A stretch of DNA of 64,000 nt from a bacterium (GCA_965216315.1 CBDCFN010000015.1:423801-487800), one strand, 5' to 3'. Shown: positions 33,220 to 63,999, counted from the stretch's first letter. The notes: generated by a model not told the origin, from the sequence alone. Translations and numbers: made by a program.

Positions 33220-33226
33220 GTAAATT

Positions 33227-40673: not shown

Positions 40674-40718
40674 AGGCAAATATTTGCTAGCAACTCAGTA
40701 GCTTCATCTCGTCGATAA

Positions 40719-40767
40719 GACCTCCCTCTGGCACCTCCTTAAGTAAGAAGGAGGGGATAAGGAGTGA
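40719..40767. repeat. Degenerate hairpin element left of DUF559
   Basis: GACCTCCCTCTGGCACCTCCTT-AAGTAAG-AAGGAGGGG resembles the first half of 41134-41222. Confidence 0.65.
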
Positions 40768-40771
40768 CATT

Positions 40772-41146
40772 TTGCAGCAGCGTGTACGGATTGGTTTTCG
40801 ATCATTAATTTCGAGACGTCGTAAACTTAGAAAAGAGCAGACGCCTACTGAGTTAGTCCTGTGGAAATATTTAAGAGCGAAGCGATTCAAAGGGATTAAG
40901 TTTCGCAGACAACATGGGATTGGACCTTATATCGTTGATTTCTGCGCTCCTCGTCTGCGTATTGTAATTGAAGTTGATGGGGATATCCATGCACTCCCAC
41001 AACAGAGAGAATACGATAAGGTAAGACAAGAGGAACTTGAGTCTCTCGGTTATCAAGTGCTTCGATATTCTAACAGTGACGTGTGGATGAATTTGGAATC
41101 AGTTCTAGACGATATTTTGAGACACATTTTGAAGACCTCCCCCTAG
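40772..41146 (+). CDS. DUF559 (Vsr-like) endonuclease-domain protein
   Basis: LRKEQTPTELVLW..LR, KFRRQH.IGPYIVDF, IEVDG..H, GYQVLRY.N; visibly more AT-rich than neighbours. Confidence 0.92.
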   Translation: MQQRVRIGFRSLISRRRKLRKEQTPTELVLWKYLRAKRFKGIKFRRQHGIGPYIVDFCAPRLRIVIEVDGDIHALPQQREYDKVRQEELESLGYQVLRYSNSDVWMNLESVLDDILRHILKTSP

Positions 41147-41222
41147 CCCCCTCCTTCTTAAGGAGGGGGGAGGAAAACGGTGACTCCCTCTCCTTGCTAA
41201 GGAGAGGGTGGGGGAGAGGTCC
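41134..41222. repeat. Double-hairpin MITE-like element (family B)
   Basis: GACCTCCCCCTAGCCCCCTCCTTCTTAAGGAGGGGGG...ACTCCCTCTCCTTGCTAAGGAGAGGGTGGGGAGAGGTCC; near-identical arms at 62729-62812. Confidence 0.85.
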
Positions 41223-43016
41223 TTAATCAATAGCAATCGGTCCGCAGTATTCCCAGTAACAGCCGTAGTTCGGGACTTCAAAGCCGGGGAAGAGCTCGCC
41301 GAAGAGCTCGTCGCTTAGATCATCGAACGAGTTAGCCTTGAGGCCCGCTTCCGAGATTGTGTAGAGCGCGTTACCGATGTCTAGCGAGCGGCGCATGCGT
41401 GGAGAGAATTCGGTGTCCTCAGTGATCAGGTCATCGTGTGTGACCTGTGCAAGCGAAGTAAAGCCGCTGGGTCCGACCTTGTAGACCGCCATATAGGATT
41501 TGGACCACTGATACTGAATCGGAATGGACAGCACCCCGCGGTCTTCAAAGAAGGAGAAGGCGCGGTGTTCGCGTTGGGCCTCCGATGAATCGGATTCCTC
41601 GATCGTGATTTGCTCTATCAAAGTCGGTTGGCTCAGACTCGAGATATCAAAGAGACTCAAGATCACCCGGCCCCAAAACTCTTGTTCCGAGCCGATGGAA
41701 ATCAACAGATCTCCCCACACATGGATATGGGTCGGAAAACCCGGGACATCCAGTTCGCCTAGTATCGTCGGGTTGGCGGGATCGCTAAGATCGATAGTGA
41801 TCAGGGGGTCCTTCGTGACGAAAGTGGTGACGTAGGCTGTATCTTGAATCAAGCGCGCGGCGGTAATCGATTCACCGGGTGCGATCGCATCGGTTTGTCC
41901 GACTTGTTTGAATCCGTTGTTGACGTCGAACAAGGTCAGGTAGTTACGATTGTCGTCGGCGCCGAAGGTCGAACGGTTGGTTGTCGTCGCGATGCGGAAA
42001 TGGCCCTTGTACTCATCCATCGAAAACTGATTGACGAACTGACCCGGAACCGAACCGTTCGCGCGGGGAATGACTCCGTGCTGCGGGTTCGCGATATGAA
42101 ACGCGAAGATCTCCGTCTCGTCGCCGTTGTAGGAATAGTTGGACAGGTAAAGATAATCGGGTGAGGCCGTGAACTGCGACCAGTCGCCGCCAAACACGGT
42201 GATCGGTTTGGGCAACTCCCCTAATTGAGCTAGATCCAACTTGTCGACCTGCCAGGCGGTGACACTATAAAAATAAGGTTCATCGAGTATGGACTCCGGG
42301 GCATAGGAGCGTTGGCATTCGTCTTTATCGTCTGAAAATTCCTCGATATCCCCCGTATAGACCCACTGGCGCGTGACTAGGTATATCGTGTTGTCGACCT
42401 TGCGGGAGTCCGAATAGGATCCGGTAAGGGCATAGCTTTCCAGTAGGTCCGGTTTCTTTGCATCAGTAACGTCATAAACGCGGACCTGCGTCGCGCCCGG
42501 TACCTCGGAGAGCGCATTGGTTGCGATCGGGCCATAGTAGTTTGGGTTCCCGACGATAGCAACGCGCAGCCCGTCTACAAAGAGCTCGACCGGGGTGAGA
42601 TTTAATTCGGTGCGGGAGAGCAGAGACGTTGATGCTGGTGCGCTGACATCATAGATCAACAGCCCGAGTTGATGACTCAAGATATAGAGCCGATTGCCGA
42701 CATGCTTGACGATGTCGGCCTGTTCGACGCGGGCACTCGAACTCCCTTCATCGCTAGCGGCTTCCGGGGCACCGAGGTCGGCACCGTCGCCGGAACCGCC
42801 ACTGCTGTTGACGTCATCGGCGAAAACCGTATCGGAGGAATTACTTGCGGCCTCGCCGAAGAAGGCAACGATTTCGTTGCAGTCTTTGAATTGCCGCAGG
42901 GCGGAGAGCGGAACCGGGGGTGTCGGGTCATTCGTGCCGGTTGCGCTCTCCTCGCAGCCTGTGGTTATACAAGCGGTGGTGATGAGACAGATGATAAGTG
43001 GAAAAAGTTTTTTCAT
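41223..43016 (-). CDS. Secreted beta-propeller-domain lipoprotein
   Basis: Lipobox ITG-C; EQADIVK, SDSRKVD, NQFSMDEY.G.FRIATT, DPL..IDLSDP..P..LGELDVPGF. Confidence 0.85.
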   Translation of the reverse strand: MKKLFPLIICLITTACITTGCEESATGTNDPTPPVPLSALRQFKDCNEIVAFFGEAASNSSDTVFADDVNSSGGSGDGADLGAPEAASDEGSSSARVEQADIVKHVGNRLYILSHQLGLLIYDVSAPASTSLLSRTELNLTPVELFVDGLRVAIVGNPNYYGPIATNALSEVPGATQVRVYDVTDAKKPDLLESYALTGSYSDSRKVDNTIYLVTRQWVYTGDIEEFSDDKDECQRSYAPESILDEPYFYSVTAWQVDKLDLAQLGELPKPITVFGGDWSQFTASPDYLYLSNYSYNGDETEIFAFHIANPQHGVIPRANGSVPGQFVNQFSMDEYKGHFRIATTTNRSTFGADDNRNYLTLFDVNNGFKQVGQTDAIAPGESITAARLIQDTAYVTTFVTKDPLITIDLSDPANPTILGELDVPGFPTHIHVWGDLLISIGSEQEFWGRVILSLFDISSLSQPTLIEQITIEESDSSEAQREHRAFSFFEDRGVLSIPIQYQWSKSYMAVYKVGPSGFTSLAQVTHDDLITEDTEFSPRMRRSLDIGNALYTISEAGLKANSFDDLSDELFGELFPGFEVPNYGCYWEYCGPIAID

Positions 43017-43117
43017 GGGATCCTCCTTGTTCTCTGACTTGATCTAAGCACTCTATCGCAGGGCAATCCAGAAAAGTCCTTTATTTTCAAGTATTTGTGT
43101 ATTCTGTAGAATACACC

Positions 43118-43711
43118 TTACGGGCACGCGAGATCGCCGTCCGCGGCCGCTTCGGGAACGATGACAAATATTTCGGTGCAGCTATCCGGTAGGATGTCGG
43201 CGACTTGGCTGAAATCATCGACGTTGATACTGTTGGTAATAACGGAACAGTCGATAGCATCAATGTCTGCCTTGCACGTGGCAAAGCCCTCTGAATCGGT
43301 CAGGGCCGTGCCGTTACGCAGCTCATTTTGAAGCTGGTCGGCGGTGAAGTCGAAGCCCGCCGGACCGACAATGGCAGCGATCGGATCGCCTTCGCTATCG
43401 GTGAGCCTATCGATACAGTGCAGCGTGCCGATCGAATTATCACAGAGAAAAATGTTAAGACAGAGGCGTTCGACTAATTCGTTGTAATCGGTTTCTTCCT
43501 CGGCCAGTCCCGTGCCTTGACTCTTGAAGCCGAGCACAAGACCCGGGCAATCGGATGAGGCATCGACGCCGCTGCCGTCTTCAGCGTCCGGTTCATCACT
43601 GGGAACTCCGGGGAGGCTGGGGTTGCCGGTTTCCGTGCCATGGCCGCAGGCAGGAAAGATCGCGGCGATGATTCCCAGTACGATGAAAAATTTCAGGAGA
43701 CCTTGGGCCAT
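43118..43711 (-). CDS. Cys-rich lipoprotein with a GTETGNP motif
   Basis: Lipobox FPA-C followed by GHGTETGNP; overlaps the TIGR02147 gene. Confidence 0.72.
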   Translation of the reverse strand: MAQGLLKFFIVLGIIAAIFPACGHGTETGNPSLPGVPSDEPDAEDGSGVDASSDCPGLVLGFKSQGTGLAEEETDYNELVERLCLNIFLCDNSIGTLHCIDRLTDSEGDPIAAIVGPAGFDFTADQLQNELRNGTALTDSEGFATCKADIDAIDCSVITNSINVDDFSQVADILPDSCTEIFVIVPEAAADGDLACP

Positions 43712-44532
43712 GGGACCTCCGTGAGATTAAAAATCTGAAAGTTGAGCTGATAAACGGCATCGGCCTTGCCGTCTTCGGATAAGAGGACATTGAGCTCCCG
43801 CCTGAATTCCTGAATACGCCGCTTGGCTTCTTGAAATTTCTCCTGCGAAACCGCGATGGTGATAGCGGAAATGTCACGCTTGTCATGTGCCGTAAGCTCG
43901 ATCGACTCGGCGGCACGTCGGAGCATGGATCGATGAAAGTTGGCCACTGCGAGTGACTGGACCTCGCGCGCCGTGGCGATGTTGCGTTCTGCCTGGACGA
44001 GTTTACCTTTGCTATTTTTTTTGACGAAACCGAGTTTTAATAAGAGTTCAATCGCCTCTTTGGCTTCTTTGACGGTGATTCTGGGATGTAGAGTTTTCGC
44101 AATCCATTCGGGATCGTTCTCAAAATCCGGTAATAAGATGAGTTCACGAATGGCCGCGTAGTACCAACGCGAATAGTATTCGAATTGAGATTTTTCTATT
44201 TCACTGATTTCGCGATAGCGTTTGGAAGTAGCAAGTTTCTTATACCACTTATTGCGCTCCTGATCCGTCTTGGCCTGGTTAAAGTGGACGAGGTGTTTAA
44301 AGAAACGACCTTCTTCACGGTCGAGACGTAGCCCTTTGATAAAGCGCTCGATGCCGTCATCACTGAGATTGCGTTTGCCGTCCATGACCAATTGGAGAAA
44401 GTTGGGTGAGCTAAAACCCGCCTGACGAGAGAAGGCCCGGTAGGAAAAGGCAGAGCCCTTGGATTCTTTCTTGGCCCGATAGTAATCCTTGAGGTAGTGT
44501 CGGTAATCGAGATACTTGAAGATCTGGGGCAT
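43693..44532 (-). CDS. TIGR02147-family protein (HTH + DUF4423-like)
   Basis: IFKYLDYRHYL, FSYRAFSRQAGFSSPNFL..V..GKRNL, WYYAAIREL, RDISAIT, VYQLNFQIF. Confidence 0.88.
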   Translation of the reverse strand: MPQIFKYLDYRHYLKDYYRAKKESKGSAFSYRAFSRQAGFSSPNFLQLVMDGKRNLSDDGIERFIKGLRLDREEGRFFKHLVHFNQAKTDQERNKWYKKLATSKRYREISEIEKSQFEYYSRWYYAAIRELILLPDFENDPEWIAKTLHPRITVKEAKEAIELLLKLGFVKKNSKGKLVQAERNIATAREVQSLAVANFHRSMLRRAAESIELTAHDKRDISAITIAVSQEKFQEAKRRIQEFRRELNVLLSEDGKADAVYQLNFQIFNLTEVPWPKVS

Positions 44533-44705
44533 AATTCTATTCTCGACCGAAACGTCGGCCGAGTCCATAGAAAAGTTGCTTCTTATTTTAATTATAGAAT
44601 ACTAAAAATAACAAATATTGTAATAATATTAGTATGTTATTCTAAATATATAGATATAAAAAAATATGAATAGAATACACCAAAAAGCATCCAATGGGAG
44701 GAACT

Positions 44706-45128
44706 ATGCGCACAATAGCGATTCTATCAACCGTCCTGATGACCCTCGTCGCCGTCAGTGCTTGGGGGGCCGCTAAGATGGTTACCAATCCGAGTGGGTT
44801 AAAATATGTCGATGAAAAGGTCGGAACCGGAGCGGAGGCCAAGACCGGTAAAAGTGTTGTTGTTCACTATACCGGCTGGCTCAATCAAGCCGGCAAGAAG
44901 GGCAGCAAGTTCGATAGCTCGGTCGATCGTGGCAAAAAATTCACCTTTCCGCTGGGTGCCGGACGCGTGATCCGTGGTTGGGATGAAGGCGTTGCGGGCA
45001 TGAAGATAGGTGGGAAACGAACGCTCTATATCCCGTCCAAGATGGCCTACGGAGAACGCGGTGCAGGAGCGGCGATTCCGCCGAATGCCGACCTTATTTT
45101 CGACGTCGAGTTGTTTGAAGTAAACTGA
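44706..45128 (+). CDS. FKBP-type peptidyl-prolyl isomerase with a signal peptide
   Basis: VHYTGWL, FDSSVDR, VIRGWDEG, AYGERG, IPPNA.LIFDVEL; GGAGG RBS before ATG 44706. Confidence 0.93.
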   Translation: MRTIAILSTVLMTLVAVSAWGAAKMVTNPSGLKYVDEKVGTGAEAKTGKSVVVHYTGWLNQAGKKGSKFDSSVDRGKKFTFPLGAGRVIRGWDEGVAGMKIGGKRTLYIPSKMAYGERGAGAAIPPNADLIFDVELFEVN

Positions 45129-47132
45129 TTGTTTAAACTCGTTTCCAATTTTAAGCCCCAAGGCGACCAGCCCGAGGCCATTCGGCAGCTGGTCGCCGGG
45201 GTTCGTGACGGTGTGAAGAACCAGACCCTGCTCGGGGTGACGGGTTCGGGGAAGACCTTTACGATTGCTAATCTCATCGCTCAGGTTCAAAAGCCGACCC
45301 TCATCCTGGCGCCGAATAAGACCCTGGCGGCGCAACTCTATTCGGAGTTTAGGTCTTTGTTTCCGGAAAATGCTGTCGAGTACTTTGTCAGTTATTATGA
45401 CTACTATCAGCCAGAAGCCTATGTTCCGGAACGGGATCTCTTTATCGAAAAAGACAGTGCCATCAACGACGAGATCGATAAACTGCGTCACGCCGCGACA
45501 CGGGCGCTGCTCGAACGCAACGATGTCATCATTGTTTCTTCGGTTTCCTGCATCTATGGACTCGGGTCGCCGGAGGCCTATCATGGCATGCTTGTCTTTG
45601 TCGAAAAGGGCCAAGAAATCGATCGCAACAAGGTCCTCTTGGATCTGACCAAGATCCAATATCAGCGCAATGATATCGATTTTCATCGCGGGACCTTTCG
45701 TGTTCGCGGCGATACGGTGGAAGTTTTTCCCGCCCACGAAGATGAGCAGGCCATTCGTATCGAGTTTTTCGGTGATGAGATTGAGTCGATCTCGGCGATT
45801 GATCCGTTGCGTGGGTCTCGCCTTGCCGAGTTAGAAAAAATAGCCATCTATCCGGCGAGCCACTTTGTGACCTGGGAAGAGCAAAGTAAGAAGGCCATTG
45901 TGACGGTGGCTGAGGAATTGAAAGAACGGCTCGAACAGTTGCGAAGCCTTGGCAAGGCCGTCGAAGCACAGCGGTTGGAGCAACGGACCAATTATGACCT
46001 CGAGCTCTTAGAACAGATTGGTTTTTGTAAGGGAATCGAGAACTACTCGCGGCACCTGACCGGCCGCGCCCCCGGCGAACCGCCGCCGACTTTGTTAGAT
46101 TATTATCCCGATGATTGGCTGATGGTGATCGATGAGAGCCACATCAGTGTGGCCCAGGTCGGTGGGATGTATAAAGGCGACCGCGCACGCAAAGAGAATC
46201 TCGTGGAATACGGATTTCGGTTGCCTTCGGCCCTTGATAATCGGCCCCTGCGTTTTGATGAATTTGAAAAGCTCCTCAATCAAGTTATCTACGTCTCGGC
46301 GACGCCGGCGGATTATGAGTTAGAGCAATCCGGGGGTGTCGTCGTTGAACAATTGATACGGCCCACAGGGTTGATTGATCCGGAGGTTGAGGTACGACCG
46401 GTCACAAATCAAGTCGATGATCTCTTAGAGGAAATTCGCCAACGGGTCCAATGCGAAGAACGCGTATTGGTGACCACACTGACCAAGCGCATGTCCGAGG
46501 ACCTGACTCAGTATTATGAAGAGGTCGGGGTACGGGTGCGTTATCTGCATTCGGATATCGATACGCTGGAGCGGGTGGAGATACTCCGTGATCTCAGACT
46601 GGGTAAATTTGACGTGTTGATCGGCATTAATCTGCTGCGCGAGGGGCTTGATCTGCCCGAGGTCTCACTCGTGGCCATACTCGATGCGGACAAAGAGGGT
46701 TTTCTGCGGTCGACACGCTCGCTCATTCAAACAACCGGGCGCGCGGCCCGCAATGTCAACGGCAAGGTCATCATGTACGCGGATAAGGTGACCGATTCAA
46801 TGCGCCAGGCGATTGACGAAACGAATCGACGCCGGGGTATTCAGGAGACTTTTAATCAGGCGCACGGGATCACGCCGGCGACGGTGAAGAAAAATATTGC
46901 GGATCCGATCCATGCGCCGGGGTCGGAAGATTACTTTACGGTCGATACAGAGGATGTAGGGGCGTCGCTTGCTGCGCCCATTCCGTTGACCGATATTCCC
47001 AAGGAAGTGACTCGCCTCACCACAGAAATGAAAGCGGCGGCCAAGGACCTGGACTTTGAAAAGGCGGCAGAATTGCGGGATCGGGTAAAAGAGTTGCAGG
47101 AGATGGAATTACGATTAGGGGTCAGAGTCTAA
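45129..47132 (+). CDS. uvrB: Excinuclease ABC subunit B
   Basis: [29 protein letters not shown]-terminal UVR domain. Confidence 0.97.
46955..46979. repeat. REP-like palindrome inside uvrB (encodes VGASLAAP)
   Basis: TGTAGGGGCGTCGCTTGCTGCGCCC is the inverted copy of 3583-3607. Confidence 0.78.
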
Positions 47133-48407
47133 TTACGCCACCGGTATCGGCGGGAGCCCACGGATTTCGTGCAGAGGGGTAAGCCGGCGTGACGGCCGAT
47201 GGGGGACAGTACGGTGCCGCGAGCGGGAAGCCCGTCGTGGACGCGGTCGTCGATTCAGGATTTTAATATCATGCGGCGTTTCTCCGGCTTCAAAGGCGGC
47301 CTTTAATTTATCGAGAAAGCTTTGCGCCACGGAACATGCACGAATCTTATATTGTATTCTCTCTAAGTCATTGTACCGCAGTGCAAGCCCATAACGGACG
47401 GCCTGAAGGAGTATCTTGGCTTCTTGTTCGCCATGAGGATGCATGTAATTGCTCTGGTCGAATTTTAATTCGATGGCACGGTCGCGATCCCCGACCGAGA
47501 CGGCGACGTCGACTCGAATCTGATTATGGTTGCGATACGTATAACGCCTCTCCAAATCAAGCTCACGAATGACGCCATTGCGAAGATAAACCGATTCGTT
47601 TTCCGTCAGCGTCTCCCAGTCGTAGATGTATTGGTGATCGAGTCGAATATGAGTGGCATCCGTACGCTGGGCCTGCCACAAGGCCTCGGTTTGTTCCATG
47701 ATCGTGGAACGGACGCGACTGACATCACCTAAATATTTTTCATCTCGATCATCAGGAATGAAGCTGCTGCCGTAGTTTTCGATGCGATAATTGAACAGTT
47801 CGAGGGCGGTTTCTAAGATGAACTCCACGCGGCCGAGTCGATCTTTGTGAACGGGGTTGAGTAAGAAGTCGGCCATGTAACGGTAAGAGACTTCACCGTC
47901 TACCATGAGCACATAAATGGCGATGTGGGCGCGTGTCGAGAGATCATCTAGTATGGCCAGAATCTTGCGAAATTCGCGGCGGCCGGTCTTGCCGCGATTA
48001 TGGGTCACACGCTCTAATTGCTTCAGGACGTATTGCTCCATTCGTGTGTTTGAAGGTCGTTCCGTTAACGCATGAAGTTGAGCGGCGTAACTATTGATCG
48101 TGAGCTTCTGGACCGTATCCGCGGTATTCACGAGACTTCTCAATTGAGTCGCCATGCGTTGAATATCGGCAGTCGTGACAGAACGCTGCTGGGCAAGCGA
48201 GATATCTTCCGAAGGATTTCCGAGGAGGGCGTCGACCGCGGCGATCTGGGCCGGATCATGCAGGCTGGGAGCAAACAGTTCTTGCAGCGACATCGGCATC
48301 ATGTGGGTCGTTGCCGCTATGGCGGATGCTGATGAAAATAACGATACACTGGTCGAACCGAGCATAGCGGTCTGATTATCGGTGGCCACTGAGGGTGGTT
48401 GTGACAA
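47133..48407 (-). CDS. Hypothetical protein with a possible C-terminal PD-(D/E)XK nuclease fold
   Basis: RVDVAV...AIELK followed by QAVRY; start uncertain. Confidence 0.55.
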   Translation of the reverse strand: MSQPPSVATDNQTAMLGSTSVSLFSSASAIAATTHMMPMSLQELFAPSLHDPAQIAAVDALLGNPSEDISLAQQRSVTTADIQRMATQLRSLVNTADTVQKLTINSYAAQLHALTERPSNTRMEQYVLKQLERVTHNRGKTGRREFRKILAILDDLSTRAHIAIYVLMVDGEVSYRYMADFLLNPVHKDRLGRVEFILETALELFNYRIENYGSSFIPDDRDEKYLGDVSRVRSTIMEQTEALWQAQRTDATHIRLDHQYIYDWETLTENESVYLRNGVIRELDLERRYTYRNHNQIRVDVAVSVGDRDRAIELKFDQSNYMHPHGEQEAKILLQAVRYGLALRYNDLERIQYKIRACSVAQSFLDKLKAAFEAGETPHDIKILNRRPRPRRASRSRHRTVPHRPSRRLTPLHEIRGLPPIPVA

Positions 48408-48491
48408 TCCGTTTGCGAAAATTATTTATCGATTACTCGGGTATACAGATAGACATAGCGTAGCCAGGCGGAATTCTGCTAGATTTTGCGT

Positions 48492-50399: not shown

Positions 50400-50471
50400 A
50401 ATCTTTTATTTCGATCTACAGCAGCGGAGTGTTACACTACCCAGGTAGACATTATTGATCAGCATGCTGAT

Positions 50472-50576
50472 CGGTTCATGAAACGGCAAACCCATCGTGA
50501 GGTGGGGACGCAAAGCCACTGGGCCCGTGAGAGAGGCGAAGCCGTCATCTCACAGGCTGGCAGGGCTGCCAAGGAA
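50472..50576 (+). ncRNA. Cyclic di-GMP-I (GEMM) riboswitch
   Basis: GGCAAACCCATC-GTGA-GGTGGGGACGCAAAGCC...GGCAGGGCTGCC matches the class I consensus; lies in the 5' UTR of 50667. Confidence 0.85.
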
Positions 50577-50666
50577 GGCGATCGAGCCAATGCCTTTGAT
50601 TGCGCGTCCGCGCTCCCTCTTATGGGCTTGCCACTGCAAAATTTGCCTAGGCGGTAAGGAGGGAAG

Positions 50667-51248: not shown

Positions 51249-51470
51249 TAGATTTTTGCTGATTGTATGCTTGTGAGAGGCGAGGCCTCCGACAATAGCT
51301 TGCACTTGCAAAACGGATATGTGATTCCTTGGGTCGATGGGGGAGTTTTGACACTGGAGACCTTACGAGATGAGGTGCGCCGAGTGATCATGGAGCCGTA
51401 GATCGCTATCCAATCCCCTAGACAGTGAGATTGACGAAGATTGACGAATAAGTTGAAATAGCTGTAAGTC

Positions 51471-51487
51471 TTGGCACAAGCTTTGCT
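51471..51487 (+). promoter_or_regulatory. sigma54 (-24/-12) promoter
   Basis: TTGGCAC-AAGCT-TTGCT, an exact TGGCAC-N5-TTGCW match. Confidence 0.72.
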
Positions 51488-51512
51488 TCTATTTGGGGGT
51501 AGGAGGAAGTCT

Positions 51513-58900: not shown

Positions 58901-60468
58901 GCGATTTCAAGGTGCCATTCATCGAGAGCTACCTGATTTTCGACACGGGCGCTATCGGTATCGCTTGGATGGAGGGTTAATTCCCGATAGATTTGAGCGA
59001 GGACCTGGCAGCCGCGAATGCGGTCACTGCTGCGGTGGCTCCCAAAGAGGCCCCGTTCGGTCTCGTAGGAGACATAGCGTAAACGACTGTGCCAGTCATG
59101 AATTTCTGATTGAGTCGCTTCGGAACTGGTAAAAATAACGCGTGATTGCAGGGCGACTTCGTTGCGTCGGATAGGTGATAGTTCGTTGCCGGCGAGGAGC
59201 GTGCCCATGGTCCTGCGAAGTTGGCGGACGAGAGGGAGTCCCGAATCACGCACGATCAAGCCCACGGCCAAATTGACCCGGGCGCGTTCGTCCGCCGAGC
59301 TATGCGGTGGGAGCGTTTCATTGATCGCGGCAAAGGTGCGATTGACCAGGGCATTATCCCGCAGCGCGACAAAATGACTCAGACACTCCATCAGCGCGGC
59401 ACGACGGCGCATGGGATCGGTGACTTCCAAGGCGTGGGTCAAGGCTTCGCTGGCCTCACGATGGGCGCGGCCATAGGCGATCAGGCCACTGGCGGAAAAA
59501 TAAGAGGTGCTCAAACGGTCGCCGTCATCGATGACACGATCAATCAGTGCGAGTGACGCATCTAATTCCGTGGATGAAGTTATTAATGGAGAGAGATAAT
59601 CCTGCATCTCATCGCGGATCTGACGCATTTGTGAAACGGCATGTTCTTGATCTCTTCCTTCCGATCCATTGCGAATCACGAGCCAGCCACGCAGCATTTC
59701 CGCGCGGTGATCGACTTGATCCCGTGAGCTGAGCGTATTGTTTGGCAGTTGGCCGATAAGGGCCCGCCAGCGACCGAGATCGATTCTTAAGTCATCCGTA
59801 TCGCCGAGTTCACGACTTATCCGGGCGGCCCGGCGGGCGCTGTCGACTTGAAAAGTATTGGTCGGATCCGTGGAGACCGAGGCGGCGCCAGCGTAATTTT
59901 GACGGAGGGCCGCGCGGATTTGGCGCATTTGGCCTTGAAAAGCTCGATGGGCTTGTTCGAATTCCGAGACGTCTTGGCCTTGCGCGCGGCGGAAGGCGAT
60001 GGTGGTACGGTAAAAGCGATTGATCCGGCGAAGGTCACGAATCAGGTGATCGGGATTCGTATCTTCAGTGATGCGGTTTGTCAGCTGAGTGCATTGTTGC
60101 GTCAGTGTGCGGAGTAAGGCACGTGCGCGGGTCGGATTCGAGCGACGCACCTGACGAAATTCCCGCAGGTTGGCGTCAAACGAGCGGCGCAGTTCAGCGA
60201 GTCCCTCGGGAGTCGTGTTTCCACCGGCGGCGGCCGGTTCCGGACGGACCAGAGCGGGTACATTGAAATAGGCTGCATTGCCCAGGGCCTGCATCGCATC
60301 ACGCGATTCCTGCAGCGACGTCTGCGTCGCGGTCTGGGTCTGGGCCGCTTCGGTCGGGGTCTCCGGTGGCGTTAAGTTGAGCGTAAAAACGGGGTTGCCG
60401 TCACCGCCGGCAGCGGGGACAATGCTCGGTCGGGGTCGCTCAGTTGTAATACTATCTGGTGGTGGCAT
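52978..60468 (-). CDS. Giant 2496-aa protein: helical repeats, hydrophobic helices, HD phosphohydrolase domain, Pro/Ala-rich tail
   Basis: Uninterrupted ORF with AGAGGA RBS; PHDWPH...ALLHDIGYG...H...AIERH...AADNLD. Confidence 0.8.
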   Translation of the reverse strand: MPPPDSITTERPRPSIVPAAGGDGNPVFTLNLTPPETPTEAAQTQTATQTSLQESRDAMQALGNAAYFNVPALVRPEPAAAGGNTTPEGLAELRRSFDANLREFRQVRRSNPTRARALLRTLTQQCTQLTNRITEDTNPDHLIRDLRRINRFYRTTIAFRRAQGQDVSEFEQAHRAFQGQMRQIRAALRQNYAGAASVSTDPTNTFQVDSARRAARISRELGDTDDLRIDLGRWRALIGQLPNNTLSSRDQVDHRAEMLRGWLVIRNGSEGRDQEHAVSQMRQIRDEMQDYLSPLITSSTELDASLALIDRVIDDGDRLSTSYFSASGLIAYGRAHREASEALTHALEVTDPMRRRAALMECLSHFVALRDNALVNRTFAAINETLPPHSSADERARVNLAVGLIVRDSGLPLVRQLRRTMGTLLAGNELSPIRRNEVALQSRVIFTSSEATQSEIHDWHSRLRYVSYETERGLFGSHRSSDRIRGCQVLAQIYRELTLHPSDTDSARVENQVALDEWHLEIALSQWADALATSDVALTARAAHLTQILDIARETNTTERVSGNLRNLATDFASMLDSQINDTSDPNQQIALRHLKFNLLRAAQATLGGFEEPVQYATDDLHSDAYNLETRAREATNPTQRLALLGQAGALYQSLSTTTVEGHDYTTDVRRVLNNSLTAANNENVPFATRIRVTHQVAQQYARLGDTQRATSLINGLRTQAQGFVTQAGQTRTIPQRLQLLSQARTIYAELGDHNQAAAATQEMRQVISNLAGRISQMPTAETRRGAYAFVIQAYRQIGDESAAEAATRQLLTAIRSDEDLSVGDRITWYRQAAALYSDAIPNALDAATEGRSIESRTGRIFRNILSEMRRFGEAQNRTDVTTYTRYMSALSYGNTEEARLRHDAFMNLESANADLLNQVHGTWQQLATRVTAIQEARTGRSTNRRTAMTIHWLGQLIDGQYEGLINEAQDDEDFDGSIVGQIGTAIGLNHRSATVAQRQRERRFMHQFLTRIQTVLDDGDATTTQDAIAHIRESEPETVRRFYRNIGSWSISRSTVDALMSCDRLDAPFVRAQRLLRVSREMIRDDSLDGRVTPTIHSILASIQNSRAAGNFVELPDMFTSISRIVNHRAELSDFYNIQHHLSGTNTLGGQISDTRDLMPYQQGFAQVIDHTFSVEGGLILLASLFTAGLAAELAYGAIIARVGASVTGAILAGAGSFAANVATFNAVNFGLTGVYRGLTGREQMSGEEMFVGARNSTTTFAAITLATMPFRNHPVMRFIAGVSAMVGSEDINHAIGWAPENTQPLGVRLFVGALQFGAIEAGMGAMRSMRSTRAARETPQQEQMRIAAEDIARLRLHGREVSQNRFDIEVNRILNGWEGRADWADRYHNELWQTIWNRTSEYHGRMQEGRRGSETARPEATGNGERMASPAELARLEQARQQAQNGETPAARTREQRIADLPEALQSIVNALTSGIESPQQGIRLSGNLAVLDFVESLNPSQRARLAEAAAQPNTRNNISALLDLAARTPDGNAARFLRSVDGHILEVLATGPEGIFTTLNREGLLHHFTGENPAQHVDAIMQISEPAVRQRALASLAIHEFNQTTHTEAGTRLLRLFGIDAARHEHFPWTTSDLLRRADLYPRILEFRQNFTDSLIRLRGEQNRPAIERFVNDLFEAIVQQDVQDTLLPYTPHDWPHTLQVMRLSEQVFDSSPALRRQLTAQYGSEAQARTMVQIVALLHDIGYGRLRPGESKGIHAIRSGELFQADFAQHLRDVFGIEATDAQFNEAFLAIERHGADKLRFPDDVRAHYNLSHSDVLDIISLMEPYDTNRAARRRALRQQHPNLSERDLNRRVAEAIVEDCRARLRTRYPRMSEAHIESIARTFVRSGYMSASETNHPLLFIIRAADNLDLTASRMRDVQAHPIMMEALMELNQLTERSDFPTEDTPQAQAVRDRMMQPIRDRYIERFRAVMPAHEARVYETLLNGLNESTWPHFEGCLQLRGVRMEETSSGRFVATVFVADTPAGRAIVEGGERIQGALYQIARLHTASDSLTLNNQHIAVRFAVDGRASNRPRVEGFAFGYSPEASFRPQAARVLELTPRQFRDVTDWFARRGSGEQFETHTQMTEAVSRLPRADQLALANHLVGIEGRHLWGASELSSVFGNDWVTQNLRPQAGRPIIRARSGRPTLNGDTLNGLMRARANDLLNMIDAQLGNSITGAARTQLVRRLMSRWQHLAGQRRGSWITDCTRARDTIYEMARRARFNSLDLSALSANQIIDTVSGRTTVHQMLGEPAPAPTLTYTPASRPAPAAPAAAAESSQPGTRNIRMPRRRPQPAPQQPAAAPAAEAAPAPAQAAPAPVVEAAPTPAPAAEAAPQGTRNIRMPQRQPQSAPAAQAVPAPAPAPAAEAAPAPVSRFQQRRSQLIDAVVREARQRYPEYYGENPAGRTRLDGLRTALEATFRDSVLELDLSDIALRSRGNVVLASRHARGI

Positions 60469-60585
60469 ATTTCGTCCTCTATTAAGGACGCAAGGAGGGC
60501 TGAATTTCCGAGTAACGAGTTGCGCATATCCCCCATGCGTCGTTCAAGCTGGTGTTCCCGCACTGAGAACACACACTCTCTATAG

Positions 60586-60602
60586 AGCAAAGGCTGTGCC
60601 AA
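60586..60602 (-). promoter_or_regulatory. sigma54 (-24/-12) promoter of the giant gene
   Basis: Minus strand TTGGCAC-AGCCT-TTGCT. Confidence 0.72.
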
Positions 60603-60746
60603 AATGGGCTGTTCAACGCTTAGGGAAACAACCTATTGAAATTATAAGATAATTTAGAATTGGTGACTCGAGAATTGCCTTAAAGATAGGCAGAGTGTGA
60701 ACGTCATTTGTTCACGTTCACACTGAAAATGTGAACAAATTGATGC

Positions 60747-61670
60747 CTAGATCTCGTAGCGATCCAACCACTCGGCGTATTTCTTCTCTTCTCCCGCGAG
60801 GATGCGGAAGTAGATATCTTGAACTTTTTTGGTGATCGGGCCCGGCTCGCCGGTGCCGATCTGGCGCTTGTCGACCTCACGGATCGGGGTGATCTCCGCG
60901 GCCGTGCCGGTCATGAAGAGTTCATCGGCGGTATAGACCTCGTCGCGCGTGAAGAGGTCTTCACGGACTTCATAGCCCTCGTCTTTGAGGAGCGTTATCA
61001 CCGCGTCACGGGTGATGCCCTCCAAGACGGAATGAGAAAGCGGTGGTGTCTTGACGATGCCGTTCGTAACAAGAAAGATATTTTCGCCCGTGCCTTCGAC
61101 GACAAAACCGTGCGGGTCCATTAGCAGGGCTTCTTCGTAGCCGCAGTCCAAGGCCTCGCGTTTGGCGAGGATGGAGTTGACGTAGTTGGCCACGGTCTTG
61201 GCCTTGGAGAGGTTCACGTTGACGTGATGACGCGTGTAACTCGAGACCTTGCAGCGGATGCCGTGTTTGAGACCTTCTTCGCCGAGATAGGTTCCCCACG
61301 GCCACGCGACGATAGTCGTCCGCGTTGGATTGTTGGCCTGGAGTCCCATCTCGCCATCCCCGACAAAGACAAGGGGGCGGATGTAGGCGTGTTTGAGACC
61401 GTTTATTTTTAACAGCTCGCGGGTGGCCTTCATCAGGTCTTCGGCTGTGTGATCAAACTTGATGGCCATGATATGGGCGGAACGTACGAGGCGATCCATG
61501 TGTTCGCGATGACGGAAGATGGCCGAGCCGCCGTCTTTCAGTTCATAAGCGCGGATGCCCTCGAAGACGCCCATTCCATAGTGCAGCGTATGCGTGAGCA
61601 CGTGGACGTTCGCGTCGTCCCAATCAACGAATTTTCCATCCAACCAAATCTTTTTTTGTTTCTCAACCAC
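60747..61670 (-). CDS. ilvE: Branched-chain amino acid aminotransferase
   Basis: HTLHYGMGVFEGIR, YIRP, EGTGENIF, LEGITR, GTAAEITP. Confidence 0.95.
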   Translation of the reverse strand: MVEKQKKIWLDGKFVDWDDANVHVLTHTLHYGMGVFEGIRAYELKDGGSAIFRHREHMDRLVRSAHIMAIKFDHTAEDLMKATRELLKINGLKHAYIRPLVFVGDGEMGLQANNPTRTTIVAWPWGTYLGEEGLKHGIRCKVSSYTRHHVNVNLSKAKTVANYVNSILAKREALDCGYEEALLMDPHGFVVEGTGENIFLVTNGIVKTPPLSHSVLEGITRDAVITLLKDEGYEVREDLFTRDEVYTADELFMTGTAAEITPIREVDKRQIGTGEPGPITKKVQDIYFRILAGEEKKYAEWLDRYEI

Positions 61671-62712
61671 GTTGAAAAATCTCCTCTATCGCCTCTCCGT
61701 AAGGAGCTCGCAGTATACCACGCTCGGTGATAATTGCCGCCACCAATTCGTTGGGGGTTGCGTCAAAAGCGGGATTCCTGACGGTGATACCTTCCGGCGC
61801 GACGGCCTGTCTATAAAAATTAGTGACCTCTTCGCGGGGCCGCTCCTCGATGGGGATCTGCTCACCATTCGGGGTCTCACGGTCGATCGTTGAGAGCGGG
61901 GCGGCGACATAGAAGGGAATGCCATGCTCTTTGGCGAGTATCGCGACGTTGTAGGTTCCGATTTTATTCGCGATGTCCCCATTGGCGGCGATACGATCGG
62001 CGCCGACGATGACGCAGTCGATTTTTTTCTGCCGCATGAAATAGGCCGCCATATTATCGGTGATCAGGGTGACCGGCACGTTGTTTTTTTGCAGCTCCCA
62101 TGCGGTCAGCCGGGCGCCTTGGAGAAAGGGGCGGGTTTCGTCGGCGAAGACGCTGATGTTTTTGCCCGCTTCGACGGCCGAATAGATGACACCGAGGGCC
62201 GTGCCATGTCCGGCGGTGGCAAGCGCGCCGGCATTGCAATGGGTCAAGACCGTCTGGCCATCTTCCAGTAAACTTGCTCCGTGAGCCCCCATCTGTTGAT
62301 TGATGGCGACGTCTTCCGCGAGGATATTCTGGGCCTCTTGGAGGAGGCGTGCCTGCAACTCAGCCAGCGGCAGGTCTTGTTGGGCCGCGAGGACGGCCTT
62401 CATGCGGTCGAGCCCCCATTTTAAATTGATGGCAGTGGGTCGCGTCGAAAACAGCACATCGCAGGCGGTTTCGATGTCGCTTTGTAGCTCCTCAAAACTC
62501 TTAGCCTTGGATTCACGCGCGGCGAGCGCGACGCCAAAGGCGGCGGTGACCCCAATCGCCGGGGCGCCACGGACCACCATGTCTTTGATTGCCGCGGCGA
62601 CTTCTCGATAGGTCGAGTAGGAGAGATACTTTTCCTCCTGCGGGAGAATGCGTTGGTCGATTAAATAGAGTTGGTCGTTTTTCCATTCGATCGTGTTGAA
62701 ATTTAAAGTCAT
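61663..62712 (-). CDS. mtnA: Methylthioribose-1-phosphate isomerase
   Basis: DQRILP, VRGAPAIG, THCNAGALAT, DETRPFLQGARLTAWEL, GADRIAANGD.ANKIGTY. Confidence 0.95.
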   Translation of the reverse strand: MTLNFNTIEWKNDQLYLIDQRILPQEEKYLSYSTYREVAAAIKDMVVRGAPAIGVTAAFGVALAARESKAKSFEELQSDIETACDVLFSTRPTAINLKWGLDRMKAVLAAQQDLPLAELQARLLQEAQNILAEDVAINQQMGAHGASLLEDGQTVLTHCNAGALATAGHGTALGVIYSAVEAGKNISVFADETRPFLQGARLTAWELQKNNVPVTLITDNMAAYFMRQKKIDCVIVGADRIAANGDIANKIGTYNVAILAKEHGIPFYVAAPLSTIDRETPNGEQIPIEERPREEVTNFYRQAVAPEGITVRNPAFDATPNELVAAIITERGILRAPYGEAIEEIFQRG

Positions 62713-62728
62713 TGCGTAGTCCTTAATT

Positions 62729-62812
62729 GACCTCCCCCTAACCCCCTCCTTCGTAAGGAGGGGGGAATTGCTACTCCCTCTCCTTGCTAAGGAGAGGGCT
62801 GGGGAGAGGTCC
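62729..62812. repeat. Double-hairpin MITE-like element (family B, stand-alone copy)
   Basis: Arms near-identical to 41134-41222; TAATT present on both flanks. Confidence 0.85.
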
Positions 62813-63999
62813 TAATTGAGTTTCTTCCTTAACAATTCATTAGCCAACTTCGGATTTGCCTGCCCCTTCGTTTGCTTCATCACCTGCCCCACAAAAAACC
62901 CGATCAGCCCTTGATTTCCACCTTTATATTTTTCCACCTCTTTGGGATGGTCGGCAAGTATCTGGTCGATGATAGGCTCAAGCGTCTCACTGTCGGAAAC
63001 CTGAACCAAGCCTTCTGTTTCAACAATCTTGGCGGGTTCCTCTCCTGATTCAAAAGCCTTACTAAAGACCTCTTTCGCTATCTTGCCGCTGATACTGCCA
63101 TTGTCGATCAGCTCTAGCAACTGAGCTAGGTGTTGCGGCGTTAGTTTTGCTTCGCTGATCTCAATGCCCGCTTGGTTGAGCTCGCGTAAGAGTTCACTGA
63201 GTATCCAGTTGCCGGCTTTCTTGGGGTTGGCACCGGCCCTGATCGTGGCTTCAAAAAAATCAGCGAGTTCGCGCGACTGGGTCAAGGTATCGGCGTCCGT
63301 TTCACTCAGCTCATAGGTTTCCATAAAGCGTTGGGCCTTGGCCCCTTGCAGCTCGGGCAAGGAGGCGGCGATCTCATTGACCCAGGTCGGTGCGACGTTG
63401 AGACTTAAGAGGTCAGGGTCCGGAAAATAGCGGTAGTCGTTGGCCTCTTCTTTGCTGCGCATCGACTTAGTCAATCCTTTGTCGGCGTCCCACAAACGCG
63501 TTTCTTGCACGACTTCACCTCCGGACTCAATGACATCTTGCTGTCGGGCGACCTCGTAGTTAATCGCTTTTTCAACGTTCTTGAAAGAGTTAATGTTTTT
63601 GAGCTCAGCACGGGTTCCAAATTGCTCTTGGCCCACGGGCCGTATCGACACATTTGCGTCGCAACGCATGCTGCCTTCTTCCATGTTGCCATCACAGATG
63701 TCCAAGTAGCGTACGATGTTGCGGATTTGTTTGATGTAGGCGACGGCCTCCTCGGCCGAACGCATGTCGGGTTCGCTGACAATCTCGACTAAAGGAGTGC
63801 AGGCGCGATTGAGATCAACCCAGCTTGCACCAGAAGTGCGGGTTTGCGGATGTTCGTGCAAGAGTTTGCCTGCATCCTCTTCCATGTGAATGCGGGTGAT
63901 GCCAATACGTTTCGTTCCGGCCGCGGTATGAATATCGATATGTCCCTGTTCGCACAGAGGAAGTTCATACTGAGAGATCTGGTAACCTTTGGGCAGATC
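62812..63999 (-). CDS. gatB: Asp/Glu-tRNA amidotransferase subunit B, 5'-truncated by the window edge
   Basis: DLPKGYQISQ, HMEEDAGK, DLNRAC.PLVEIVSEP, RSKEEANDYRYFPDPDL, GFFVGQVMK. Confidence 0.96.
   Translation of the reverse strand, partial: DLPKGYQISQYELPLCEQGHIDIHTAAGTKRIGITRIHMEEDAGKLLHEHPQTRTSGASWVDLNRACTPLVEIVSEPDMRSAEEAVAYIKQIRNIVRYLDICDGNMEEGSMRCDANVSIRPVGQEQFGTRAELKNINSFKNVEKAINYEVARQQDVIESGGEVVQETRLWDADKGLTKSMRSKEEANDYRYFPDPDLLSLNVAPTWVNEIAASLPELQGAKAQRFMETYELSETDADTLTQSRELADFFEATIRAGANPKKAGNWILSELLRELNQAGIEISEAKLTPQHLAQLLELIDNGSISGKIAKEVFSKAFESGEEPAKIVETEGLVQVSDSETLEPIIDQILADHPKEVEKYKGGNQGLIGFFVGQVMKQTKGQANPKLANELLRKKLN

Follow-up and report, generated by a model that had tools for sequence, protein, structure and literature searches.

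Within the window analysed here, a 64,000-nucleotide stretch of bacterial DNA, a small gene of the DUF559 family lies between two convergent genes and is bracketed by hairpin-forming repeats that also occur without it. Do gene and repeats form a single element and, if so, which enzyme acts on the repeats?

A DUF559 cassette inserted between convergent genes

The gene is the only ORF within the cassette defined in Table 1; the ORF is intact, and its last residues, LKTSP, are encoded together with its stop codon inside the right-hand repeat. The 124-aa product scores 122.6 bits against PF04480, for which the gathering cut-off is 20.6, and 90 bits against the NCBIfam model PRK09767 ('DUF559 domain-containing protein'), which is under that model's cut-off. 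A genome-wide search found no other DUF559 copy in the 2.96-Mb genome (G000). GC content is 41.4% in the core of the gene and 45.7% in the cassette as a whole, compared with 53.6% in the window and 55-57% in the convergent neighbours, of which one encodes a GMC oxidoreductase and the other a beta-propeller protein. In another genome of the same family (G001), the two orthologues are convergent, overlap by 4 bp and have neither a DUF559 gene nor a hairpin between them, and this empty orthologous site shows that the cassette is an insertion. At the window locus itself, four runs from one study contained only the filled form and no empty joint, in contigs that miss rare empty alleles. The 8-nt direct repeat ACATTTTG could mark a junction or a duplicated target, or could have arisen by chance, and no consistent equivalent of it was seen at other loci.

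Table 1. Features of the DUF559 locus and of the gene-less element, numbered from the first nucleotide of the window
Feature	Position	Strand	Description
Inserted cassette, 549 bp	40674-41222	.	From the GMC-oxidoreductase stop codon (40671-40673) to the beta-propeller stop codon (41223-41225)
Left degenerate unit	40719-40769	+	Direct reading; 68% identity to the reference unit; fold z -0.5
8-nt direct repeat ACATTTTG, copy 1	40767-40774	+	5' edge of the gene segment
DUF559 nuclease gene, 124 codons	40772-41146	+	YcjD family, Vsr-fold PD-(D/E)XK; PF04480 E 8e-36
8-nt direct repeat ACATTTTG, copy 2	41124-41131	+	2 nt upstream of the right element
Right element, 89 bp	41134-41222	+	Units A then B, inverted; three-way-junction fold, z -3.7
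Solo gene-less A-spacer-B element	62729-62812	+	Between gatB and mtnA; ~86% identity to the right element

The left unit consists of a C-rich arm, GACCTCCCTC (40719-40728), a hairpin, CACCTCCTT/AAGGAGGGG (40732-40756), and a purine arm, ATAAGGAGTGAC, whose AAGGAG (40759-40764) lies 7 nt upstream of the TTG start and, by its position, could be used as the ribosome-binding site of the DUF559 gene. Unit A, with which the right element begins, has the C-arm GACCTCCCCC, then TAG and the hairpin CCCCCTCCTT/AAGGAGGGGG; a spacer leads to unit B, made up of the hairpin CCCTCTCCTT/AAGGAGAGGG and the G-arm GGGGGAGAGGTCC. The DUF559 stop codon (TAG, 41144-41146) thus lies within the right element, the far end of which adjoins the beta-propeller stop codon. 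The solo element has TAATT on either side, its last C is overlapped by the gatB stop (CTA, 62812-62814), mtnA starts at 62710-62712, and in its alignment with the right element gaps are confined to the central spacer. Both elements fold as a three-way junction of an outer stem and two hairpins, with z-scores for the solo element of -5.0 on one strand and -5.2 on the other (against 200 shuffles, Watson-Crick folding only). A search of Rfam with the right element returned only sub-threshold microRNA look-alikes, none near the gathering score.

Across the window's genome, 21 copies of the core hairpin form 18 clusters, whereas the reversed-pattern control gave 0. Eleven of the clusters are gene-less pairs of one CCCTCCCCTT-type and one CCCCTCCTT-type unit, with similar T-rich spacers of 6-9 nt. 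With a more generic definition there are 87 hairpins in about six families, as against one nuclease gene; 27 of these lie at most 45 nt from the stop of an ORF of at least 200 aa, positions that make up 5% of the genome, and 26 lie in ORF interiors, which make up 76%. The earlier note, made from the sequence of the window, had described the AT-richer gene between convergent genes, the degenerate hairpin on its left, the 89-bp double hairpin holding its stop, the near-identical gene-less copy flanked by TAATT, and copies abutting stop codons, and each of these descriptions holds; it had also suggested looking for empty sites, of which the G001 site is one.

Architecture of the repeat units

The general unit, ~33-37 nt in length, combines a pyrimidine arm, a short loop and the purine arm that pairs with the first with a third arm that is a mirror image of the stem arm beside it; two such units, inverted relative to each other, form a dyad-symmetric element. 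A direct reading of one window unit gives GACCTCCCCC TAA CCCCCTCCTT CGT AAGGAGGGGG. The third arm is present in 87 of 145 distinct hairpins, where it is a mirror in 64, a direct copy in 9 and tied between the two in 14. G-quadruplex formation was considered as the common denominator; it suits the GGGGAGAGGG-TCA-GGGTGAGGGG family found in relatives but not the window's own family, and the mirror-arm rule was therefore adopted instead.

BoxC/PIT/TM intrastrand-triplex repeats are abundant, occur in hundreds of bacterial genomes and are conserved across phyla; to our knowledge, they have been without a partner ('orphaned') since the 1990s. Judged by sequence, the architecture of our units is that of these motifs: in class II, a C-arm is joined by the G-arm that pairs with it and by another G-arm that mirrors the second, and class III is the complement read from the opposite strand; the copies, of ~35 nt, are dispersed and numerous and include inverted pairs in which the two units differ in type. 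The published TM_ECO consensus, CCCTCNCCCN3-6GGGNGAGGGN3GGGNGAGGG (PMC4666352), is matched by the X-family units of relatives (CCCCTCTCCCC..GGGGAGAGGG TCA GGGTGAGGGG), including units at their DUF559 loci (e.g. L009), and by the unit at E. coli ycjD. The window units, with CCCCTCCTT/AAGGAGGGG stems and GACCTCCCC or GGGGAGAGGTC arms, depart from it, and even a looser TM stem pattern, CCTCTCCCN{3,8}GGGAGAGG, has only 2 matches in the window's genome; the window units are a sister family of the same design.

The repeats had been described as a family, and the available text of that description names no partner enzyme (PMC4666352). The same text (Holder et al. 2015), as far as available, reports no mobility gene near TMs, states that transposase or integrase remnants were never found close to them, and does not contain the word 'endonuclease'. 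Within that text, in vitro triplex data concern TM_ECO only, and a TM_ECO triplex was undetected in vivo. What departs from the published picture is that a DUF559 gene is a recurrent neighbour, E. coli ycjD included.

In E. coli K-12, ycjD is the sole PF04480 match, and 168 bp separate its stop codon from a TM_ECO copy downstream, one of 23 in that genome. A fabI-ycjD-sapF query was at least 80% covered at one place in 3343 of 5426 E. coli genomes. Among the matches listed, those under 80% (H26-H39) match the fabI end only, and one of them, from an ST131 strain, has an efflux operon in the place of ycjD. Other short matching places remain in the strains under 80%, and the single one listed (H40) covers the TM copy; the repeats are thus kept in E. 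coli lineages that lack ycjD.

Association of DUF559 genes with the repeats across genomes

In 40 related genomes, 26 of 30 DUF559 loci had an inverted-repeat flank score higher than any of the 56 displaced controls. Eighty further loci were fetched from Chloroflexota, Cyanobacteria, Patescibacteria, Pseudomonadota, Bacteroidota, Nitrospirota, Elusimicrobiota and others, and 51 of the 72 that could be evaluated exceeded all 128 displaced controls; this sample comprises the closest relatives of the window protein (42-67% identity), so distant DUF559 clades lie outside it. Perfect hairpins of at least 8 bp were present within 250 bp at 27 of the 30 loci in relatives and at 37 of 69 in the diverse set, as against 10 of 146 displaced windows and none of 19 Y1_Tnp loci. 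Strict triplex-type units gave 17 of 29 and 37 of 69 loci, respectively, versus 10 of 192 displaced windows, and flanked the gene on both sides at 9 relatives' and 17 diverse loci but at none of the displaced windows. Repeat density at DUF559 flanks was 3.7 per kb, compared with ~0.085 per kb outside ORF interiors in the window's genome. The nuclease-repeat pairing is therefore general, across many phyla. Orientation around the gene is not fixed: it is canonical for 20 of 26 scored units in relatives and by 30 to 24 in the diverse set, and the window copy, with a degenerate unit, the gene and then A and B, is non-canonical. A chance origin of the repeats and of their pairing was considered and rejected on the reversed-pattern controls (0), the displaced windows and the shuffled folds.

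Counts of hairpins of the two patterns point the same way, with a median of 14 in the 22 relatives that carry DUF559 (1 has none) and of 2 in the 18 that do not (8 have none; Mann-Whitney p 0.0005, with kin not independent). With the same dependence among kin, they correlate with DUF559 copy number at rho 0.60, as against 0.33 with Y1 copy number.

RAYT systems have a single-copy gene flanked by inverted short hairpin repeats that are dispersed in large excess, REPIN doublets are common, and REP copies are mostly extragenic, at 3' ends. The present system resembles them in its single gene bracketed by inverted units dispersed in excess, in its doublets and in its extragenic copies at 3' ends. 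It differs in that the enzyme is a PD-(D/E)XK Vsr-fold nuclease instead of an HUH Y1 transposase, and in that the units have a mirrored third arm in place of a GTAG head. Could the hairpins nonetheless be ordinary REPs moved by the genome's Y1 transposase, with DUF559 incidental? The window's genome does contain one Y1_Tnp-like gene (C16:1213549-1213878, 31 bits), and Y1 genes are present in 36 of 41 relatives. However, the flanks of that gene lack the hairpins, and none of the 19 evaluable Y1 loci in relatives has any such hairpin within 600 bp. Seven Y1-bearing relatives have neither hairpin pattern, while two genomes without a Y1 gene have 14 (G008) and 8 (G040) hairpins, and a separate GTAG-tagged REP family, with 34 copies in the window's genome, is the more natural Y1 partner. 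We therefore rejected Y1/RAYT as the partner of the hairpins; this explanation, already largely refuted, is extremely improbable.

The earlier note had asked whether the repeats would be enriched near DUF559 genes over background in a survey across genomes, whether nuclease and repeat subfamilies share a history, and whether a transposase elsewhere carries the same ends; the survey bore out the first, the second is borne out below, and no such transposase emerged among the Y1 loci. Its central proposal, a REP/RAYT-like system with a Vsr-like nuclease as partner, is upheld as regards a gene bracketed by dispersed repeats, whereas action of the nuclease on the repeats is put forward conditionally below.

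Co-divergence, deletion derivatives and a model for spread

Flank similarity climbs with protein identity: the score, 17 at baseline, is 34 for proteins that are 65-80% identical, and the observed rho was reached in 0 of 300 permutations. Within one genome (G022), three DUF559 clades each have their own hairpin family. Nuclease and flanks thus co-diverge.

These data bear on the idea that the units spread or arise by other means (such as replication slippage, non-B DNA recombination or another enzyme) and that pair centres are hot spots in which small selfish genes settle, with DUF559 using the repeats as a safe harbour but not mobilising them. Units do occur in genomes without any DUF559 match (32 hairpins in G019, 15 in G018 and 11 in G026), as in the ycjD-less E. 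coli lineages, and several hairpin families accompany one nuclease gene in the window's genome. Insertions nested at palindrome centres would also suit this idea: at L117, the loop of one hairpin is occupied by an unrelated element that has terminal inverted repeats and a duplication of 9 bp, and L005 has, beyond its units, palindromes and a direct repeat of 18 bp. TM loci are, moreover, described as prone to rearrangement in the available part of PMC4666352. It leaves unexplained, however, why one gene family sits at the centres across many phyla when 0 of 19 Y1 loci have hairpins, why nuclease clades and unit families pair within G022, and why unit counts track DUF559 copy number, and we consider it unlikely.

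G022 also contains 3 full-length copies, one of them frameshifted, and 4 internally deleted copies that keep the terminal repeat units, two of which have an identical deletion at different loci. With its terminal inverted repeats and internal-deletion derivatives, the cassette resembles TIR transposons and MITEs; no consistent target-site duplication was found among the loci, only isolated direct repeats (8 nt in the window, 18 nt at L005). Only 1 short-spaced unit pair (spacer at most 30 nt) was seen in G022, so the pair form of the window's genome is not general. In some genomes, the cassette is nested within a further pair of outer inverted repeats, and another agent could therefore move it. 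Of two same-genus comparisons, G004 with G019 is syntenic on one flank only, which fixes the right boundary of the G004 element alone, and at the G039 site G018 gave no DNA match whatever.

The deletion series would also be expected if the units were parts of an expression cassette, an upstream ribosome-binding arm and a downstream stabilising or insulating hairpin, with solo copies as decay debris and the nuclease serving restriction, defence or very-short-patch repair. At many loci, a purine arm does precede the start codon by 5-10 nt, as AAGGAG precedes TTG in the window, and DUF559-type domains occur within defence proteins (weak Hhe and mREase_II matches). Caulobacter VsrA, which has a DUF559 domain inside it, causes DNA damage when a cytosine methylase is absent, and very-short-patch repair is its proposed role (PMC12907096, in the part available). 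An in-frame insertion in a methylase might also be cited: the cassette is present in 10 of 120 M-S methylase homologues among the matches listed, always in frame and at one site, as a plain insertion with repeat-encoded linkers. Against this stands the excess of units over genes, which is 10- to 60-fold (150 vs 9 in G022, 120 vs 2 in G037). The 11 gene-less pairs in the window's genome look copied after deletion, because their short spacers are similar, rather than decayed eleven times, and single 33-nt units lie in frame within a housekeeping HemW-like gene. PIT motifs have neither promoter nor terminator activity, according to earlier work cited in the accessible part of PMC4666352. Finally, no cytosine-5 methyltransferase gene adjoins the window gene, its neighbours being those named above. 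We regard this explanation as decidedly improbable.

The reading that we prefer, with about even confidence, is that the DUF559 gene and its flanking units are one inserted selfish cassette, probably homing-like, with non-autonomous relatives. The recurrent in-frame insertion at one methylase site speaks for this reading as well. The catalytic residues of the nuclease are intact, D56, E67, D69 and H73 being invariant among 28 homologues. By sequence, the protein matches 3hrl (E 1.5e-18), and its predicted structure (pLDDT 88) matches the fold of 3hrl (E 1e-6, TM 0.82), the I-Bth0305I catalytic domain (3r3p chains, ranks 2-3, E 4e-5) and Vsr (E 6e-3). DUF559/YcjD is among the commonest small nuclease families of 'unknown function', and we know of no strand-transfer activity in Vsr-fold proteins. 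In the cassette reading, the gene would occupy the centre of a dyad-symmetric unit pair, which the nuclease would recognise by sequence or as an extruded hairpin or triplex structure and would cut at or near the central spacer. Its closest characterised structural relative, the homing endonuclease I-Bth0305I, is described in the available text as a homodimer with a 14-bp pseudopalindromic core site (PMC3239194). After such a cut, a copy that carries the gene would be the repair template, and the gene would spread in this way. Pairs without the gene, and single units, would have arisen by internal deletion or would be targets, multiplying non-autonomously as REPs do beside RAYT genes, and the start-adjacent purine arm would double as a Shine-Dalgarno sequence. 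Against this reading stand the units in genomes without a DUF559 match, the six or so hairpin families beside one nuclease gene and the variable orientation of units around the gene; the 11 'empty' pairs in the window's genome also coexist with an apparently intact nuclease gene, which is odd for an active homing enzyme.

The predicted Vsr-like catalytic fold, for which this EDxHD homing endonuclease is the second-best match, is one likeness; others are presence or absence at fixed sites and a gene central in pseudopalindromic sequence. Unlike I-Bth0305I, the window gene is free-standing between repeats, outside any group I intron or intein (Rfam found no self-splicing intron at the gene), its product is much smaller and lacks extra DNA-binding domains, and its putative target is a multicopy repeat as opposed to a conserved host gene. 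E. coli Vsr and Caulobacter VsrA share the fold and catalytic residues, but the DUF559 gene has no adjacent cytosine methylase and is patchy, multicopy and cassette-like, with decaying copies.

If the nuclease does act on the repeats, the cassette would represent a second kind of system, beside REP/RAYT, that joins a repeat to a domesticated enzyme; here the enzyme would have a restriction-like fold and might recognise non-B DNA. We propose more tentatively, and on balance lean against, the wider view that BoxC/PIT/TM repeats all belong to one pan-bacterial selfish element, as its ends, as its targets and as its non-autonomous progeny. The DUF559 enzyme of that element would recognise folded hairpin, triplex or three-way-junction DNA in preference to plain duplex sequence and would drive both its own homing and the instability reported for TM loci. 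Two long-standing orphans, the BoxC/TM repeats and DUF559/YcjD, would then account for each other; the pairing in any case gives the BoxC repeats a candidate partner enzyme. We found no paper linking DUF559 to the repeats in a search of the openly accessible literature, to which the original BoxC and PIT reports do not belong.

Rickettsia palindromic elements are short palindromic repeats that lie in frame within protein-coding genes, and we know of no nuclease gene associated with them. Triplex-type units likewise occur in frame, although sequence and taxa differ. The unit arms are all-pyrimidine or all-purine and therefore contain no stop codon in any frame, so that units, and even whole cassettes, can sit in frame within genes; translated repeat arms would account for the proline/serine/glycine-rich tails and in-frame inserts of some annotated proteins.

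A DUF559 cassette inserted between convergent genes

The window covers C15:423801-487800 of the source genome (2.96 Mb, 98% complete). Its DUF559 gene, the only copy found in a genome-wide search, has a core GC content of 41.4% compared with 53.6% for the window. In a genome of the same family (G001), orthologues of both neighbours converge with a 4-bp overlap, and neither DUF559 nor a hairpin is present at this orthologous site. The 549 bp at 40674-41222 are therefore extra DNA in the source genome and constitute an inserted cassette. In contigs assembled from four runs of a single sequencing study, the filled form alone is seen, a sample that is uninformative on rare alleles.

Mismatches between the right element of the cassette and its gene-less copy are mostly confined to the central spacer, and both elements are predicted to fold as two hairpins inside an outer stem (z -3.7 to -5.2); the left unit showed no folding gain over shuffled sequences (z -0.5). 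With the right, left and gene-less elements located and folded, the observation of the earlier note, that a DUF559 gene sits between hairpin elements also found alone, is borne out in all its parts by sequence, annotation and folding. At many DUF559 loci the purine arm adjoining the start codon resembles a Shine-Dalgarno sequence; for the gene of the window this arm reads AAGGAG, followed by 7 nt and the TTG start. We regard it as unlikely that the units are relics or an expression module of the DUF559 cassette.

Features of the DUF559 cassette, related repeats and compared loci (bare coordinates are window positions)
Feature	Position	Strand	Remarks
GMC-oxidoreductase gene, neighbour of DUF559 gene	end at 40673		ORF call and annotation
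Left unit	40719-40769		weak copy of one unit
DUF559 gene	40772-41146	+	PF04480, E 8e-36
Right element	41134-41222		89 bp; first bases GACCTCCCCC; contains TAG of DUF559 gene
Beta-propeller gene, convergent neighbour	stop 41223-41225		ORF call and annotation
Gene-less copy of right element	62729-62812		gatB/mtnA intergenic; ~86% identity to right element
Second triplex-type family, two units	16934-16971, 33219-33256		AAATCCCTCC TAA/TAG CCTCCCTTT loop AAAGGGAGG
Classical REP-like family, separate	3583-3607, 7654-7678, 25319-25343		palindrome GGGCGCAGCAAGCAGCGCCC then CTAC (GTAG on other strand)
Y1_Tnp-like gene	source genome, C16:1213549-1213878		single in source genome
HemW-like radical-SAM gene	source genome, C16:2209603-2210847 (L148:104-1348)		stop codon from third unit
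Fused M-S N6-adenine methylase with DUF559	L033:4960-7908 (G014:C28)		982 aa; insert after methylase motif I
ycjD	E. coli K-12, 1351407-1351760	minus	sole PF04480 match in K-12
TM consensus match, one of 23	E. coli K-12, 1351205-1351239	same as ycjD	168 bp past ycjD stop, before fabI

Each unit has two pyrimidine arms, separated by a 3-nt spacer, and then, after a loop of 3 nt, the complementary purine arm, as in GACCTCCCCC-TAA-CCCCCTCCTT-CGT-AAGGAGGGGG. We call this order, pyrimidine arm first, orientation A, and its reverse complement, hairpin then purine arm, orientation B. The outer arm is a mirror image of the stem arm and not a direct copy: among the 87 of 145 distinct hairpins at DUF559 loci with a recognisable third arm, the mirror arrangement fitted better in 64 and the direct copy in 9, with 14 ties. 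Being made up wholly of pyrimidines or wholly of purines, the arms are free of stops in any frame, and the 3-nt spacer, often TAA, TAG or TGA, gives a stop to ORFs running in. Two 33-nt units lie in frame within the HemW-like gene, where they fall in loops that differ from one orthologue to another.

The window's hairpin family forms 18 clusters in the source genome, of which 11 are B-spacer-A pairs with T-rich spacers of 6-9 nt and two unit types each, 2 are the window's A-spacer-B elements and 5 take other forms. A generic scan recovered 87 pyrimidine/purine hairpins from about six families; 27 are no more than 45 nt away from a long-ORF stop, sequence amounting to 5% of the genome, and 26 lie inside ORF interiors, which amount to 76%. 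Stems starting CCTCCCTT, which belong to the second triplex-type family of the window, number 15, and no cognate DUF559 gene for this family is present in the source genome.

DUF559 genes and their units across genomes

We compared 40 genomes of the same class as the source genome. DUF559 is patchy: 23 of 41 genomes (source included) have it, and the number of matches per genome ranges from 1 to 9, some of them broken. At 26 of 30 loci in these relatives, the inverted repeat in the flanking 180 nt, upstream and downstream, scored above all 56 displaced controls; the sequence of the repeats is lineage-specific and their design common. In a diverse set of 80 DUF559 loci from named genomes of many phyla, 72 of which were evaluable, the flank score exceeded all 128 displaced controls at 51. 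A perfect hairpin was found within 250 bp of DUF559 at 27/30 loci in relatives and 37/69 in the diverse set, compared with 10/146 displaced windows and 0/19 Y1-transposase loci, and strict triplex-type units at 17/29 and 37/69 loci, respectively, compared with 10/192 displaced windows and, again, 0/19 Y1 loci. Hairpin density was 3.7 per kb in DUF559 flanks versus about 0.085 per kb outside ORF interiors of the source genome (61 hairpins over 24% of 2.96 Mb).

DUF559 and the units also co-occur at the level of genomes. Combined counts for two hairpin patterns had a median of 14 in relatives with DUF559 (n=22; one with zero) and of 2 in those where DUF559 was not found (n=18; eight with zero), a difference whose significance is overstated by the Mann-Whitney p of 0.0005, since the genomes are kin. 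Hairpin count correlated with DUF559 copy number (rho 0.60) and with Y1 copy number (rho 0.33). Exceptions, with hairpins but no DUF559 match, were G019 (32), G018 (15) and G026 (11). The unit nearest the gene in relatives was B upstream or A downstream in 20 of 26 scored units, and both polarities occur in the diverse set (30 to 24); the common rule is an inverted unit pair with the DUF559 gene at its centre of dyad symmetry.

The gene and its repeats behave like a single entity that evolves and decays as a whole. Flanks of loci in different genomes become more alike with rising DUF559 protein identity, the mean score being 17 for identities under 55%, 34 for those of 65-80% and 111 for those over 80%, and the correlation was matched by none of 300 label permutations. 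One relative, G022, has three DUF559 clades, and the hairpin family differs from clade to clade; for one of these families there are three full-length copies (one frameshifted) and four with internal deletions whose terminal repeat units are retained, an identical deletion being present in two of the four at different loci.

Further structures were seen around some cassettes. Outer inverted repeats (about CTTCGCGTCATCGAGTGGGTAAA) surround the cassette at L009, L117 and L119 (G022), L019 (G040) and L016 (G039), those at L019 being flanked by a 12-nt direct repeat, CAACTTATTTTG; no paired organisation of this motif exists in the source genome. A palindrome, AAAAGTGCACTTTT (or ..GTGGAC..), lies outside the units at cassette ends of L005 (G004:C9) and of L026, L115, L118 and L120 (G022). 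An 18-nt direct repeat, AGTTGATCATAAACAACT, marks either end of L005, and homology with G019, of the same genus, begins exactly at the boundary so marked. At L117 (G022:C33), the loop of the downstream hairpin contains a small, unrelated element that has terminal inverted repeats (CATAGGTATCTACACATC) and shows a 9-bp duplication (CTCAAGGGG); since this element itself includes a unit pair, lacking a gene, from a different family, the insertions are nested.

Relation to BoxC/TM repeats and ycjD

The mirror-arm design led us to a motif already in print, and the window's repeat is a known orphan, BoxC/TM. As reviewed by Holder et al. 2015 (PMC4666352), this three-block motif was named BoxC in the 1990s, PIT elements in 2000 and also TM_ECO, with the consensus CCCTCNCCCN3-6GGGNGAGGGN3GGGNGAGGG; it has 23 copies in K-12 and is present in over 260 genomes. 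According to that paper, inverted TM pairs always bring two unit types together, the triplex formed in vitro (CD, NMR) and was not detected by in vivo footprinting, and rearrangement between strains affects TM loci more than it does control sites; its authors saw no remnants of transposases or integrases beside these repeats, and its text lacks the word 'endonuclease'. In several relatives, the units at DUF559 loci match the published consensus, whereas the window's own family falls outside it and shares the design.

In E. coli K-12, a degenerate unit overlaps the ycjD stop. A fragment of about 70 nt repeating the ycjD 3' end lies just before the BoxC/TM copy (L156 3860-3790, minus), pointing to a second cassette once present here or to partial duplication. 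BoxC was first noticed beside envM/fabI. A fabI-ycjD-sapF query was at least 80% covered in 3343 of 5426 complete E. coli genomes; matches listed below 80% cover comprised the fabI end only, and one ST131 strain among those listed carries an RND efflux operon in place of ycjD. A paper on this locus (PMC12817139) reports that this operon (eef) was lost at least twice, with ycjD in its place.

Our literature search found no paper naming BoxC or an intrastrand triplex together with ycjD or DUF559, and no DUF559-mentioning paper it found treats flanking repeats; a systematic DUF559-BoxC/TM pairing appears to be absent from print. One study lists an excess of DUF559 genes at predicted targets of inversion (odds ratio 14.3; PMC9881135), which fits genes framed by inverted repeats. 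The pairing gives the repeat a candidate partner nuclease and is directly testable in K-12.

The nuclease, a candidate mechanism and further insertions and repeats

The catalytic residues of the nuclease are intact, D56, E67, D69 and H73 being invariant in 28 DUF559 homologues. A sequence search against solved structures returned 3hrl alone, a Neisseria DUF559 protein of unknown function, and the confident predicted model of the window protein (pLDDT 88) matched 3hrl (E 1e-6), the I-Bth0305I catalytic domain (E 4e-5) and E. coli Vsr (E 6e-3), in that order. I-Bth0305I is described as a homodimeric homing endonuclease with a footprint of about 60 bp, whose specificity is highest for a pseudopalindrome of 14 bp with the cut at its centre (PMC3239194).

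We infer that the nuclease could recognise the dyad-symmetric pair of units, or a structure extruded from it, and cut near the centre; recombinational repair would copy the gene-bearing form, and gene-less pairs and single units would multiply as non-autonomous relatives. We give this scheme an even chance. Its main rival, clearly less probable, is that unit pairs owe their spread to something else and the gene does no more than settle in them; in favour of it are units present without DUF559, several unit families beside one DUF559 gene in the source genome, insertions nesting at palindrome centres and the outer inverted repeats around cassettes in G022, G040 and G004.

DUF559 also occurs within fused M-S N6-methylases, in 10 of the 120 homologues listed, always in frame and at one common site (10/10), with A-gene-B polarity. 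Linkers such as PSPPTPLPGGEG and SPxGRGxGGEG are translated repeat arms, and uninserted homologues read DAKGNS at this site. Because the ten homologues share the site and come from different organisms, the insert may be a domesticated nuclease domain.

The REP/RAYT analogy proposed in the earlier note for DUF559 and its repeats was apt; that the hairpins are themselves a REP/RAYT system is highly improbable. The separate REP-like GGGCGCAGCAAGCAGCGCCC family has 34 copies in the source genome (at most 4 mismatches), none within 3 kb of the Y1_Tnp-like gene. The 3' end of that gene is duplicated, over about 70 nt, some 360 bp downstream (L002, C16:1212900-1213330 of the source genome).
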